From an uncultured Rhodocyclaceae bacterium (GTDB lineage Bacteria > Pseudomonadota > Gammaproteobacteria > Burkholderiales > Ga0077523), in contig CAZXJW010000001.1 in NCBI GenBank assembly GCA_964641005.1, forward strand, positions 2,415 to 35,716: a stretch of 33,302 nt of DNA. The letters are read 5' to 3'. This document shows positions 22,811 through 33,302 of this stretch, piece after piece. Every line of letters starts with the position of its first letter. Within the stretch, counting starts at the first letter, position 1. Under the pieces are notes generated by a model, which did not search any database, had not been told where the DNA came from, and saw nothing but the letters and a program-made list of their open reading frames with translations. The position numbers and the translations under genes are program-made.

Positions 22811-25800
22811 ATGACCATCTACACCGTCACGGCCGGCATGACGATTCTGGGCAACGACAGTGTCCAGGGCACCGGCGGCACCACGGATGCGGTGAACCTG
22901 CTCTTCACCGGGGGCGACATCTCGGTCTCGGGCGTGGAGACGGTGGTCGGCTCCACCGGCACCGCCGACATCGCGGTGCAATTCGGCAGCGGGGCCTCGG
23001 ACCTGTCGGTGAGCGCGGTGGAGACGGTGCTCGGCCGCGCGGCCGAGACCGACGCCGTCACCCTGCTGGGCACCTACGGCACCCTGCGGGTGAGCAACGT
23101 GGAATCCGTCACCGGCACCGCCGGCAGCGGCGAGATCGTCGCCATGCTCGGCGCCGGCGGCCTGTCCGTCTCCGGGATCGAGACCGTTCTCGGTTCCTCC
23201 GGCACCGACACCGTCGCGCTGCTCGCCGACGCGGCGCTGGCGGTCTCGGCGGTCGAGACCGTGATCGGGTCGACCGGCACCACCGACACCGTGACGGTGC
23301 TGAGCAGCGGAACGCTGCGCGTGTCCGCCATCGAGACGGTCGTGGGCACCGCCTCCCCCAACGCCGTGGCACTGCTCGCGGCCGAGAACGTGGCCGTGAG
23401 CAACATCGAGACCGTGATCGGGGTCGCGGGCGCCGAGAGCGTGACGCTGCTCGCCTCCGGAGCGGCCAGCATGGCGCTTTCCCGCGTCGACACCGTGGTG
23501 GGTACCGGGAACGCCGGCGACCAGGTGCGCCTGCTCGGCGCCCAGACGCTCGACGTGAGCGCCGTGGAGACCGTGACGGGCTCCACCGCAACGGGCGACA
23601 CCGTGCGCTTCCTCGACACCGACGCCACCATGACGGTGTCCGCCGTGGAGCTCGTGGTGGGCTCCACCGGAACCGACGACGTGCTGCGCTCGCTCGGCGG
23701 CGGCAACGTCTCCGTGTCGAACATCGAGTCCGTGCTGGGCACGGCGTCCGCCGACACCATCACCCTGGTGGGCCAGACCGCCGTGATCGTCTCCGGCATC
23801 GAGACCGTCACGGGCACGGCCGGCACGGCCGACGCCGTCACGCTGCTGCAGGACAGCGCCATCGCGCTGTCGGCCGTGGAAAGCGTGGTTGGCGTGGCGG
23901 GCAGCAACGACGCCGTGCGCATCCTCGGCACCGGTTCCGTGGCCGTGTCCGTCTCCGCCATCGGCACGGTGCTCGGTTCCACCACCACCACGGAAGTGGT
24001 GCAGCTCATCGACGCCGGCGACACGCTGCGCGTGAGCCACGTGGACACGGTGCTCGCGACCACCGGCACCGGCGACACGGTGATCATGCTGGCCGCAGGT
24101 GGCCTCGCGGTGAGCGAGGCCGAGACGGTGGTCGGCTCCGCCGGCACCGACAGCCTGACCCTGCTCTCGGGCGACGCGGTGTTCCACGTGAGCGCCATCG
24201 AGACCGTGGCCGGCACCGGCGGCACCGATGCCGTGCAGCTGCTCGCCGCCCTGCCCGGCGGCACCGCGCTGGCGGTGACCCAGGTGGCCACCGTGGTGGG
24301 CACCTCGGGCGGCGCCGACAGCGCCCGCCTGCTGGGCGCCGGCACCGTGTCGGTGTCCGCCATCGAGACCGTGCTGGGCGCCGCCGGTGGCGGCGACAAC
24401 GTGGAACTGCTCGCCACCCAGACCCTGGTGGTGTCCGACGTGAACCGCGTGGTGGGCGTGGCCGCCACCACCGACGTGCTGCGCCTGCTCGGCGGTGCGG
24501 CGGTGAGCGTGTCCGCCATCGACACCGTCATCGGTTCGGTGGGCACCGACGCCGTGGTGATGCTCTCCGACGACAACGCCGTGCTGGTGTCGCTGGTGGA
24601 GACGGTGACCGGTTCCGCCGGCACCACCGACACCGTCAACCTCGCCGGCTTCGGGACCGTGGCCGTGACGGCCGTGGAAAGCGTCGTCGGCTCGGCCGGC
24701 CAGGACGCCATCCGCCTGCTCGCCGCGGGCGCGGTGGGCGTGTCCGCCGTGGACACCGTCATCGGCTCGGCCGGCAGCGATGCCGTCACCATCCTCGGCT
24801 CCGGACCCACCGTGAGCCTGAGCGGCGTGGAGACCGTGGTGGGCACCACGGCCGTGGGCGAGATCGTGCGCCTCATGGCGCCTTCCTCGATCTCGGTGAG
24901 CGCCATCGAGCAGGTGCAGGGCAGCACCCAGGCCGGCGACACGGTGATCATGCTGGGTAACGCATCGGTGTCCGTGTCGGTCACCAACGTGGAGACCGTC
25001 CAGGGCACCACCGACACCGGCGACGTGGTGCGCCTGATCGGTGGCGGCGCGGTGCTGCTGTCGGCCGTCGAGACCGTCTCCGGCTCCGCCGGCGGCGACG
25101 TGGTGACCCTGGCCGCGGCCGGCACCATCACCGTGGACGGCATCGAGACCCTGATCGGCACCGCGGGCGCCGACACGGCGGAGCTGCTCGCCGCCGGCAC
25201 GCTGGGCGTGAGCGCCATCGAGTCGGTGATCGGCGGCACCGCCAGCACCGACGTGGTCCAGATGCTCTCCGCCGCCACGCTGCTGGTGAGCAACGTGGAC
25301 ACGGTGCTCGGCTCCTCGGGCACCGACGTGGTCACCCAGCTCGGCGGCTCCGGCCTCGCCGTGAGCAACGTGGAGACCGCCATCGGCACGGCCGCCACCG
25401 ACGACACCGTCACGGTGCTCGGCGGCAGCGTGCGCGTGTCGGCCATCGAGTCCGTGCTCGGCACCGTGGGCACCGAGAGCATCGTCCTGCTGGGCAGCGG
25501 CGTCACCGTGAACGTGGCCGAGGTCGACACCGTGACCGGCAGCGCCGGCACCGACGTGGTGAACCTGCTCTCCAGCTCGCCCGTGGCCCTGTCCGACGTG
25601 GAGAGCGTGGTGGGCGGCTCGGGCGTGGACGTGGCTCGCCTGCTGGCCGCGGGCACGCTGTCGGCCTCCGCCATCGACACGGTCATCGGCAGCGCCGGCA
25701 CCGACGTGCTGGCCCTGCTGGGCGCCGAGGACAAGAACATCGCCGTGTCGGCAGTGGAGACGGTGCTGGCCACCGCGGCGGGCACCGACACGGTGACCAT

Positions 25801-33302: not shown

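Follow-up and report, generated by a model that had tools for sequence, protein, structure and literature searches.

Proteins of the RTX group carry nonapeptides of the form GGxGxDxUx. In 90% of them the isoelectric point lies between 3.2 and 4.9, and they contain few or no cysteines (PMC3034196). Serralysins such as AprA (PDB 1KAP, 1SAT) have these nonapeptides in tandem, two to each 18-residue coil, in a protein that also has a catalytic domain. A larger type is represented by LapA, FrhA, MpIBP and SiiE, which are multi-thousand-residue substrates of type I secretion systems (T1SS) in which a repetitive extender is followed by a C-terminal RTX/secretion module (PMC10865825, PMC4083281). The extenders of this class consist of Ig-like or cadherin units of ~100 residues, and the proteins have N-terminal retention modules and ligand-binding domains on the C-terminal side.

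The stretch of DNA analyzed here, which is 33,302 nucleotides long and is called the window below, contains most of a giant gene whose predicted product resembles both groups in part. Like the LapA class, it appears to encode a T1SS substrate of several thousand residues in which repeats precede an RTX module, but it has none of the extender, retention or ligand-binding domains of that class. Like the serralysins, the product is acidic and lacks Cys, its orthologues end in a similar tail, and a transporter of the PrtD subfamily is encoded downstream of two of them. Unlike the serralysins, it is built from units of 25-26 residues with one Gly/Asp turn each, and about 156 such units would make up the whole protein with no catalytic or other domain. 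The comparison supports the view that the class of giant T1SS/RTX surface proteins is known, and that a variant with 25-26-residue repeats and no LapA-type retention module is new. The host is presumably a high-GC betaproteobacterium of the Burkholderiales/Rhodocyclaceae lineage, with the gene at a chromosomal locus.

A first-pass annotation of the window proposed this gene from a stop-free plus-strand frame and from the lack of entries for that frame in a track of closed open reading frames (ORFs). Translation of 22811-33301 (+) indeed yields 3,497 codons with no stops, and the frame is still open at the end of the window. The 5' part of the gene occupies 22811..33302 on the plus strand (3,497 codons and one base), and its 3' end lies outside. 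By itself an open frame is weak evidence, because GC content is 72% and the minus strand also has huge ORFs, one of 3,454 aa (22409..32773) and one of 2,179 aa. The argument from the ORF track was thus right about the plus frame, but it left an equally long antisense ORF in the same track that needed excluding.

Codon-position composition provides this exclusion. GC content at the three positions of the plus frame is 0.66/0.55/0.97, and these values stay uniform when the frame is divided into ten 1-kb blocks. In the 3,454-aa minus ORF, GC content is highest at codon position 1 and the product would be rich in Gly, Ala, His and Arg, and the second minus frame is interrupted by stops. A pattern of GC1 > GC2 with GC3 at 0.97 is seen only in the plus frame. 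On this basis the giant minus-strand ORFs are rejected as coding and are taken to be shadows of the plus frame.

In three other genomes the same plus frame stays open for 3,152, 3,412 and 3,462 codons, and it is intact in the orthologous loci L002, L003 and L009. Substitutions between orthologues rank 3 > 1 > 2 by codon position and dN/dS is 0.37-0.56, values below one that show, at the level of sequence comparison, purifying selection on the gene. DNA 5' of the gene cannot be aligned from one orthologue to another; conservation sets in precisely at the ATG, and the first 80 residues are 54-70% identical among three orthologues. Could the frame instead be a chance opening in high-GC repeat DNA, a pseudogene or the complement of a true minus-strand gene? 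Several frames, including that of the 3,454-aa minus ORF, do stay open for thousands of codons at this GC content, and the related contig L001 is full of frameshifts. Compared with the intact L003, however, L001 has 57 gap openings at 92% identity, which is a signature of assembly errors, and neither the plus-only codon composition nor the substitution pattern, the intact frames and the sharp onset of conservation fits such a reading. It is vanishingly improbable, and the sequence evidence, as far as it reaches, already refutes it. Because codon-position GC, dN/dS and colinear orthologues agree, the plus frame from ATG 22811 is judged to be the translated frame of one real giant gene, as had been proposed. 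Its codon usage is the C-ending extreme among genes of the window. High expression is thereby hinted at only weakly, as the window holds no ribosomal-protein genes against which to calibrate.

The start region was also described accurately at first pass. A Shine-Dalgarno sequence, AGGAG, can be read at 22798..22802 (+), 8 nt before the ATG, and a purine-rich GGAG-type element is found at the equivalent place in L001, L002 and L003. The only N-terminal stretch outside the repeat-unit HMM is a cap formed by residues 1-15 (MTIYTVTAGMTILGN; 22811..22855, +), which is nearly invariant among orthologues and contains short β-strands in an AF2 model. This cap is neither a signal peptide nor a retention module. 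By inspection, the N-terminus MTIYTVTAGMTILGNDSVQGT has no charged (basic) n-region and no hydrophobic h-region, in keeping with the reported lack of a Sec signal. The repeats begin near the N-terminus, as noted earlier, with a partial unit from residue 16 and the first full unit from residue 39. Since the array follows directly on the cap and Pfam (E <= 0.01) finds no domain in 3,497 residues, the claim that a LapA-type N-terminal retention module is missing also holds.

The remainder of the protein in view is a tandem array at 22856..33301 (+). The unit HMM finds 134 matches over 96% of the frame, with units of 25-26 aa (range 21-30) and a mean unit identity of 38%. The unit consensus is V-S-A-V-E-T-V-x-G-[ST]-x-[AG]-G-T-D-x-V-x-[LM]-L-x-x-G-T-L-A (VSAVETVxGSxGxxDxVxLLxxGTLx in short form). 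Every unit holds one turn, G-x-x-G-x-D-x-V, that is like the RTX nonapeptide, and 39 units match the relaxed pattern G[GSTA]xGx[DE]x[VILMFA]. The strict pattern GGxGxDx[LIVMF] has just 3 matches in the 3,497 residues. A test for higher-order periodicity revealed no super-period. With a pI of 4.05, 325 Asp and Glu versus 67 Lys and Arg residues, and no Cys, the array protein has the acidity and the scarcity of cysteine that are characteristic of RTX proteins.

Recent expansion and concerted evolution of the units are both rejected, on the 38% mean identity of the units and on the comparison of orthologues, which are 58-67% identical in register versus ~43% out of register, with indels that are all of 1-3 aa.

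Database searches show the 25-26-residue unit to be an uncatalogued repeat without a Pfam, NCBIfam or PDB counterpart. The Pfam model HemolysinCabind (E <= 0.01) has no match in the 3,497 residues, NCBIfam (E <= 1) returns nothing meaningful for the array, and a PDB sequence-profile search with it gives noise only. An exhaustive search of 1.84e9 representative proteins found 68 related ones, and it is by this search that rarity is judged. A word-indexed search with a 150-aa N-terminal query, which recovered one fragment only (P0001), is unsuited to the purpose. The 68 are mostly secreted proteins in which the units form short runs and carry a canonical GGxGxDxVxL, and Pfam covers only their flanking domains and leaves the repeat region unannotated. 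The literature yielded no description of a 25-26-residue repeat of this kind or of glycosylated T1SS fibres.

The nearest sequence relatives are serralysin-like metalloproteases and multidomain proteins (P0003, P0008, P0009, P0005, P0006 and P0002; phmmer E values of 1e-62 to 1e-17), which are uncharacterised. They share with the giant protein a unit of ~25 residues, ...[VI]E[TS][VL]xGGxGxDx[VI]xL..., and many have a related T1SS-type tail. In these relatives 10-25 units follow a catalytic or Ig-like region and precede the tail, whereas the giant protein would have about 156 and nothing else.

Orthologues are found in metagenome-assembled genomes of Burkholderiales/Rhodocyclaceae. The window protein is colinear with them (67% identity to L003 and 58% to L002), and they align unit for unit without a single whole-unit indel. 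Retention of the exact unit number at 58-67% identity suggests selection on the exact length of the array, which would be an unusual form of conservation for tandem repeats. L001 carries a complete but error-laden orthologue of about 4,063 codons (646-12836 on its contig). Because the two genes are colinear, some 570 residues of the window protein should lie beyond the window. The C-terminal domain is out of view, as the annotation stated, and we infer a complete gene of about 4,060 codons and about 156 units. GTDB representative genomes contain no exact copy of a 60-mer taken from the end of the window, and an exact look-up of the YCII protein encoded nearby was negative as well.

In L001 the array passes straight into an RTX tail, and canonical nonapeptides are confined to the tail of the orthologues. 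This tail matches Peptidase_M10_C with 30 bits (cut-off 20.7). Two of three orthologue tails also pass the TIGR03661 cut-off of 17.6, with scores of 18.6 and 20.4 in L001 and L005 and 15.6 in L006. The last ~125 residues align to the C-terminal domains of alkaline protease/serralysin in the PDB (E about 2e-6 to 5e-6). These matches show that the orthologues end in a serralysin-like RTX tail of the type targeted to T1SS, and the window gene would end in a similar one.

Structure prediction points to a repetitive β fold. Two AF2 segment models (pLDDT 69.7 and 74.5, pTM 0.71 and 0.75) are both all-β with two strands per unit, at moderate confidence. Neither has a significant Foldseek match in the PDB (best E = 0.05). 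The weak matches are nearly all β-helices, β-rolls or solenoids, among them the RTX region of CyaA, CsgA, MpAFP RIV and pectate lyases; RsaA is also present. The array may thus fold as a β-solenoid with one coil per unit. Predicted strand-turn-strand repeats stacked on a fibre axis are reminiscent of CsgA, FapC and MpAFP region IV, a Ca2+-bound β-helix (PDB 8C50, 9U4U, 3P4G). The analogy is structural only: these proteins, though among the top (non-significant) Foldseek matches, share no sequence similarity with the array, have TM-scores <= 0.35, and are unlike it in repeat length and export route. Binding of Ca2+ by the array units is a conjecture, because strict GGxGxD sequences are so few and HemolysinCabind is silent on the array.

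Orthologous loci that extend further downstream provide additional clues to the fate of the protein. A gene for a TPR-GT41 enzyme resembling OGT (human OGT, 4e-108) lies directly downstream of the giant gene in all five such loci (L001/L008, L005, L006, L009 and L010). In L009/L010 it is fused to a second TPR and GT9-like module, for a total of ~1,715 aa. The island also holds methyltransferase, UDP-GlcNAc 2-epimerase and sugar-nucleotide genes. TPR-GT41 enzymes are very common, with 2,416 matches, and the family at large is uninformative about the giant gene because only 3/2,416 are at orthologue level. Judged from the adjacency of the GT41 gene alone, the giant protein is probably O-glycosylated. 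There is a precedent in FlmG of Caulobacter, a TPR and glycosyltransferase enzyme that uses its TPR domain to bind its substrate, a secreted filament protein, and glycosylates this in the cytoplasm, ahead of export (PMC7591256). The partner gene here is similar in that it combines TPR with a GT-B (GT41/OGT) domain and lies beside methyltransferase and sugar-nucleotide genes. It differs from FlmG in that the presumed substrate is a T1SS protein rather than flagellin, and the enzyme belongs to GT41 of the OGT family, with an activity that is predicted.

Beyond the glycosylation island, L008 and L009 encode a PrtD-type ABC transporter (best match TIGR01842), and L008 also has an HlyD adaptor gene (TIGR01843) downstream. 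These T1SS genes lie about 8-10 kb from the giant gene and are present in both loci that extend far enough. No T1SS genes occur in the 22.8 kb upstream within the window, or within 2-10 kb downstream in L006 and L010. The suggestion of a T1SS made at first pass is borne out by the orthologues, with their serralysin-like tail and PrtD/HlyD-type genes, and the giant protein is probably exported by a dedicated, linked system.

Expression of the gene may be coupled to motility. A sigma-28 (FliA)-like motif, TCAAG-N14-GCCGTTAC, is located at 22549..22575 (+), 236 nt upstream of the ATG. The pattern TCAAK-N14/15-GCCGTTA has this single match on both strands of the 33.3-kb window and none in 100 shuffles. 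It occurs once each in L001-L004, always 5' of the giant gene, on the same strand and in otherwise unalignable DNA, so that all five loci, the window included, carry it. Compared with the sigma-28 consensus TAAAG(TTT)-N11-GCCGATAA (PMC7286023, PMC12784957), the window motif agrees at 4/5 and 6/8 positions and has T in place of the critical -11 A. In L008 and L009 the T1SS ABC gene has a sigma-28 site of its own ~95-110 nt upstream, near-canonical in one locus and perfect in the other. In L002, moreover, the giant gene is divergent from fliD-fliS-fliT (Pfam), and L004 has the same ORF layout in DNA that is 82.5% identical; the window itself contains no flagellar genes. Judging from these sites, the giant gene may be under sigma-28 control together with late flagellar genes, and regulation of a T1SS adhesin with the flagellar genes has a precedent in FrhA (PMC10865825). 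A scan for sigma-54 promoters gave no convincing or conserved site. A sigma-54 activator was likewise discarded as a synteny link, since the L006 copy shares only 42% identity with its flagellar counterpart in L002.

We consider it fairly probable that the gene encodes a glycosylated, T1SS-exported, sigma-28-controlled β-solenoid that serves as a surface or extracellular fibre. The gene would be transcribed from its sigma-28-type promoter, with a leader of ~235 nt, at the same time as late flagellar genes. The product would then be O-glycosylated in the cytoplasm by the downstream TPR-GT41(/GT9-like) enzyme, with participation of the methyltransferases. The linked PrtD/HlyD-type T1SS would recognise the serralysin-like RTX tail and export the polypeptide unfolded. 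Extracellular Ca2+ could drive stacking, first of the tail and afterwards of the units, each of which would add one coil to a β-solenoid rod of roughly 75 nm at 4.8 Å per coil. Such a rod might function in adhesion or as matrix for motile-phase cells.

A more ambitious version of this proposal is that the rod is an extracellular appendage of a kind not recognised before. Measuring ~75 nm, heavily O-glycosylated and stabilised by Ca2+, this β-solenoid would consist of a new derivative of the RTX repeat with a long period of 25-26 residues, would have its own T1SS and belong to the late (sigma-28) flagellar regulon, and its exactly conserved number of units would act as a molecular ruler. This is unlikely as stated. 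If true, it would describe a motility-phase fibre, used for example in surface sensing or first contact while swimming.

Other roles must be weighed against the glycosylated fibre. The protein could be released and self-assemble into a lattice at the envelope or in the matrix, exported by a T1SS like the S-layer protein RsaA, rather than forming individual adhesive fibres. Its acidity, lack of Cys, RTX tail, PrtD-type T1SS and extreme C-ending codon usage suit a lattice and are traits listed for RTX S-layers (PMC3034196); RsaA is among the weak structural matches, and release is plausible for a protein with no retention module. At ~4,060 aa, however, it would be four times as large as the RTX S-layer proteins now known, it lacks a distinct domain for anchoring at the N-terminus, and a constitutive S-layer would not be expected to have a promoter of the sigma-28 type. 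Strict conservation of unit number suggests that length is important, as would suit a rod or spacer better than a lattice, and we regard a lattice as distinctly improbable. A retained adhesin of the LapA/FrhA type, held by an N-terminal plug in a TolC-like pore and released through LapG/LapD in response to c-di-GMP, would share the giant size, the T1SS and the RTX tail, and FrhA is flagellar-regulated (PMC10865825, PMC6890996). Against this, the array begins at residue 16 with no retention domain before it. Big or cadherin extenders and ligand-binding domains are missing from the 3,497 residues, which have no vWA domain either, and from the C-terminal region of orthologues. Neither the window nor the DNA flanking the gene in L002, L008, L009 and L010 has lapG/lapD-like genes. 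Retention of this type is largely refuted by the N-terminal anatomy and has only the slimmest of chances.

The flagellar associations raise a further possibility, namely that the protein leaves the cell by flagellar type III export and becomes a filament coat, a sheath component or a substitute for flagellin. Its gene is divergent from fliD-fliS-fliT in L002 and apparently in L004, a place taken by fliC in the E. coli arrangement, and it has a sigma-28-like promoter. The island of TPR-GT, methyltransferase and UDP-GlcNAc 2-epimerase genes also resembles a flagellin glycosylation island (PMC7591256). Nevertheless, Pfam finds no Flagellin_N/C or other flagellar domain in the window protein or the orthologue tail, and the loci of the window and L003 are not beside flagellar genes. 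A serralysin-like tail and a linked PrtD/HlyD T1SS with its own sigma-28 promoter argue for a different exit, and a flagellar structural role is very unlikely. Two-partner secretion of the FHA type and autotransport were rejected, as there is no signal peptide or TPS domain and the orthologues end in an RTX tail, not a barrel. Ice-nucleation proteins have 16-residue AGYGSTxT-type repeats, with a 48-residue higher-order repeat, and N- and C-terminal domains. This identity was rejected on the 25-26-residue period without super-period and the lack of a Pfam match.

If the model of a glycosylated T1SS fibre holds, the RTX β-roll principle would extend to a larger coil, and the protein would be a Ca2+-dependent solenoid of natural origin, very long and monotonous, that might interest protein engineers. 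Pairing with an OGT-family island would amount to an uncommon glycosylation of a T1SS substrate. In environmental Betaproteobacteria, sigma-28-type promoters on the genes for both cargo and transporter would couple a secreted fibre to the flagellar programme. The case also illustrates why protein databases lack genes of this type, which are cut at contig ends or split into small ORFs, on either strand, by errors in long reads.

The genes on the other side of the start codon appear to be neighbours only. Rfam detects nothing but a tRNA in the 5' region, and across orthologues the 5' leader has no conserved block besides the promoter motif, the Shine-Dalgarno sequence and the start codon. The tRNA gene that was reported 392 nt upstream is tRNA-Ala(CGC) at 22343..22418 (-), found by both ARAGORN and Rfam. 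It also precedes the giant gene in L001 and L003, and is a conserved synteny marker rather than a functional part of the system. An orphan gene for a Cys-rich peptide of 41 aa is likewise present where the annotation had placed it (22167-22292, -), but its supposed association with the giant gene is not upheld because it lies in a block of ~8 kb that is specific to the window and has no counterpart in L003, the syntenic locus. A YCII protein is also encoded in the neighbourhood of the giant gene in the window.

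The plus-strand frame opened by the first-pass annotation at ATG 22811 contains no stop in its 3,497 translated codons (22811-33301) and leaves the window, as had been claimed. Because the window is 72% G+C, an open frame is by itself little proof of a gene, and the ORF list includes two minus-strand ORFs over the same DNA, of 3,454 aa (22409-32773) and 2,179 aa (23074-29613). G+C by codon position in the plus frame is 0.66/0.55/0.97 and is uniform across all 1-kb blocks. In the 3,454-aa antisense ORF, G+C is highest at codon position 1, and translation would give a polymer of Gly, Ala, His and Arg. 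Stops interrupt the other antisense frame, in which GC1 is below GC2. Orthologous frames at loci in other genomes are open for 3,152 (L002), 3,412 (L003) and 3,462 codons (L009). Substitutions among orthologues rank codon position 3 > 1 > 2, with dN/dS of 0.37-0.56. The proposed start codon is also borne out: AGGAG lies at 22798-22802, orthologues are unalignable 5' of the ATG and perfectly conserved from it onward, and residues 1-80 are conserved position by position in three orthologues. Judged from sequence, the plus frame is confirmed as the translated one among the overlapping open frames. The antisense ORFs are shadows of the giant gene and can mislead automatic annotation. Within the array of L001, an error-prone contig, several small minus-strand 'genes' were indeed called.

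No other window gene leans so far towards C-ending codons as the giant gene. Its shares for Ala (GCC, 0.75), Gly (GGC, 0.96) and Pro (CCC, 0.67) exceed those of every other window gene, and its share for Leu (CTC, 0.37) ties for the highest. Such codon choice could point to high expression, although the window, without ribosomal-protein genes, offers no calibration.

A 15-residue N-terminal cap (MTIYTVTAGMTILGN), encoded on the plus strand, precedes an array of 134 tandem units that, according to a unit HMM, covers 96% of the frame. Unit length is 25 or 26 residues in most cases and ranges from 21 to 30; the consensus is V-S-A-V-E-T-V-x-G-[ST]-x-[AG]-G-T-D-x-V-x-[LM]-L-x-x-G-T-L-A. Their pairwise identity averages 38% and reaches 76% at most, the array has no higher-order period, and TRF detects only a few short repeat arrays at the DNA level. 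The units are thus old and diverged. The visible protein (332 kDa, pI 4.05) has 325 D+E against 67 K+R, no Cys and a single Trp; V, T, A, G, S and L make up ~80% of its residues, and S+T account for 26% of the units. Each unit carries G-x-x-G-x-D-x-V, which resembles the RTX nonapeptide GGxGxDxUx, with 39 units fitting a relaxed form of the nonapeptide and 3 the strict form.

A Pfam search, recommended by the first-pass annotation together with structure prediction, gives no match at E <= 0.01, whichever third of the protein is searched. NCBIfam returns nothing meaningful, and the repeat profile matches no PDB sequence (best E 0.14, which is noise). Among 1.84 billion cluster representatives, an exhaustive phmmer search turns up only 68 relatives at E <= 1e-3, of which 33 reach E <= 1e-10 and 5 reach E <= 1e-30. 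One group comprises metagenome fragments of true orthologues, from the N-terminus (P0022) or the C-terminus (P0020, P0017, P0061, P0062). A second consists of serralysin-like metalloproteases, where 10-25 unit copies carrying the canonical GGxGxDxVxL lie between the protease and the C-terminal domain. A third contains multidomain giants (P0002, P0005, P0006) with a run of units and then a T1SS-type tail. In these relatives Pfam annotates only the flanking domains and never the repeat. The unit is thus an uncatalogued module, rare and RTX-derived, that occurs in secreted proteins; the window protein is an extreme expansion of it.

AlphaFold2 was run on two independent segments, residues 1345-1603 and 1-301, using alignments of the protein's own in-register segments. 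Both models (pLDDT 69.7 and 74.5; pTM 0.71 and 0.75) are all-beta, with one long (~10-residue) and one short (~7-residue) strand per unit. Foldseek finds no significant match to them in the PDB (best E = 0.05). Nearly every match listed, none of them significant, is a parallel beta-helix, beta-roll or solenoid; these matches include CyaA RTX, pectate lyases, tailspikes, AlgE4, CsgA, FapC, MpAFP region IV, the FHA TPS domain and RsaA. With moderate confidence, the models and matches together suggest a beta-solenoid in which each unit forms one coil, with a cross-section that no solved structure shares.

A genome scan anchored on the N-terminus yields three loci, all in Betaproteobacteria MAGs: L002, from a Rhodocyclaceae MAG; L003, on a complete 5.29-Mb Burkholderiales chromosome; and L004, from a second Rhodocyclaceae MAG, with only the first 25 codons of the giant gene. 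The window protein is 67% identical to that of L003 over 3,416 aa and 58% identical to that of L002 over 3,154 aa. The three proteins align end to end, with identity even along their length (52-80% per 200 aa), whereas out-of-register alignments reach only ~43%. Because every indel over the >3,400 residues aligned between the window and L002 and L003 is of 1-3 residues, no unit has been gained or lost among them, and each unit has a positional orthologue in all three genomes. Such stability is unusual for a tandem array. Exact length may be under selection, or the units may simply have diverged too far to recombine.

Loci L001 and L008 lie on one contig, whose many frameshifts are assembly errors, since it is 92% identical to L003 at the DNA level with 57 gap openings. 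L001 holds the whole giant gene (646-12836), of about 4,063 codons and about 156-160 units. By colinearity with L001, roughly 570 residues lie beyond the window, in agreement with the earlier view that the C-terminal domain is out of sight. The L001 array passes directly into a ~125-residue tail (...GGAGADNYTAGSGADVFIF...DTITGF..GSDIIDL...EVDTDGNGVTDMKINLPGV...DIRW*) that shares 69-74% identity with the L005 and L006 tails and is found in L009 and L010 too. The tail exceeds the Pfam Peptidase_M10_C threshold (30 bits versus a 20.7 cut-off), and two of three tails pass TIGR03661 (T1SS C-terminal target domain). Among solved structures, it comes closest to the RTX/secretion domains at the C-termini of alkaline protease and serralysins, for example, 1KAP residues 357-472.

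Of the T1SS genes that the first-pass annotation proposed to look for, a PrtD-type ABC transporter lies downstream in the orthologous loci L008 and L009, beyond the genes for a glycosyltransferase and methyltransferases, accompanied in L008 by an HlyD-family adaptor. No secretion gene is seen upstream in the window, and no T1SS gene in the available flanks of L006 and L010. A TPR-GT41 (OGT-family) glycosyltransferase lies directly 3' of the giant gene in all five loci with a visible 3' end (L001/L008, L005, L006, L009 and L010), and matches human OGT at 4e-108 and XcOGT at 2e-85. In the intact assemblies L009 (10599-15740) and L010 (10526-15679), a ~1,715-aa protein joins the TPR-GT41 to another TPR block and, at the C-terminus, a GT9-like module. 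L001/L008 shows two genes instead, probably because assembly errors split it. Next come methyltransferases; L009 also has a GT1-like domain here, and L010 a UDP-GlcNAc 2-epimerase. Another TPR-GT41 of L008 (20893-22634) lies past the T1SS genes and is encoded on the opposite strand. In L002 (2314-9788), Pfam places the giant gene divergent from fliD-fliS-fliT-fliK and near an FlhB-C-like gene, ycgR, fliE and a sigma-54 activator (response regulator). This is the place of fliC in the E. coli layout. L004 (79-8593) has the same ORF layout as L002, at 82.5% DNA identity.

The motif TCAA[G/T]-N14/15-GCCGTTA[C/G/T] occurs once in each of five loci out of five, always on the giant gene's strand and 190-270 nt 5' of the ATG, in leaders that are otherwise unalignable. 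The window copy (22549-22575, plus strand) is unique and was matched in 0 of 100 shuffles. It resembles the sigma-28 consensus TAAAG(TTT)-N11-GCCGATAA (PMC7286023, PMC12784957), with equal spacing and matches at 4/5 and 6/8 positions, and has T in place of the melted -11 A. A relaxed scan of the window and orthologue DNA finds only two further sites, both before the T1SS ABC gene: TCAAG-N15-GCCGATAT ~95 nt ahead in L008, and a perfect TAAAG-N15-GCCGATAA ~110 nt ahead in L009. From these placements we infer that cargo and transporter genes share a sigma-28-type promoter, which would fit the fliD adjacency. FrhA, a flagellar-regulated T1SS adhesin of Vibrio cholerae, is a precedent for flagellar-type control of T1SS cargo (PMC10865825).

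The giant protein probably works like an RTX/T1SS giant surface protein. Following sigma-28-dependent transcription, the TPR-GT41 enzyme would O-glycosylate the Ser/Thr-rich units in the cytoplasm, much as FlmG, whose TPR domain binds flagellins, modifies them before export (PMC7591256). A PrtD/HlyD-type T1SS, as the orthologues support, would then recognise the C-terminal tail and export the unfolded chain. Outside the cell, Ca2+-driven folding could be nucleated by the RTX tail and propagate through the units into a rod of about 75 nm, given 156 coils at 4.8 A per coil. In motile-phase cells, the product would serve as a fibre on the surface or in the extracellular space.

The protein lacks defining features of several known classes. 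As first noted, the protein has no LapA-type retention module; unlike LapA-type adhesins, it also lacks Ig-like extender and ligand-binding domains, and no lapG/lapD-like gene is seen in the window or the visible orthologue flanks. Nor does it have the defining features of flagellins, TPS exoproteins/autotransporters or ice-nucleation proteins, and even by the RTX definition the array fails to register as nonapeptide repeats. The protein is best seen as a variation on known RTX/T1SS giants, in which a long-period, RTX-derived, predicted solenoid repeat makes up the whole of a giant, probable T1SS substrate. Further features are an unusual, conserved candidate glycosylation partner and putative flagellar-type promoters.

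The window and L003 share the order UbiA-RecG-Kup-Api92-like-tRNA-Ala-giant, in which tRNA-Ala(CGC) (22343-22418, minus strand) lies 392 nt upstream of the giant gene. Extra in the window are a complex-I/Hyf-like cluster (1333-8471) between UbiA and RecG, and a ~8-kb block (14302-22292) between the Api92-like gene and tRNA-Ala (L003 8187-9439). The block holds a SIR2-like gene, a 492-aa ORF of unknown function, a TonB-dependent receptor, DUF2946, peptidase M55, YCII, an ECF sigma factor with DUF6596, and a 41-codon Cys-rich peptide ORF (22167-22292, minus strand; MKRLLEGFVAFGLAAVAAVAWAAPDCCSGIECCLQMLACCF). The first-pass annotation placed this peptide gene next to the giant gene; its position stands, but an association does not, since its absence from syntenic L003 makes it unrelated. 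The peptide, whose N-terminus is signal-like, looks secreted; it contains three CC pairs and has no Pfam match. Its gene has an upstream SD (GGAGG) and a terminator hairpin (22113-22136). Together with the TonB-dependent receptor and DUF2946, it may belong to metal (copper?) handling.

The first ~70 residues of P0020 (320 aa, metagenome) match the UvrB N-terminus in NCBIfam, and the remainder is the last units and tail of a giant orthologue. Either the contig or the gene call is chimeric, or a genuine deletion has fused uvrB to the 3' end of the giant gene. P0026 (773 aa) and P0049 (1,092 aa) have short unit runs and are otherwise unlike T1SS substrates; the end region of P0049 presumably resembles phage structural proteins. 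The module may be mobile between secreted and phage proteins. In P0006, residues 1016-1095 match Pfam SWM_repeat ('putative flagellar system-associated repeat') in the same protein as the units, another, loose, tie of the repeat family to flagellar loci.
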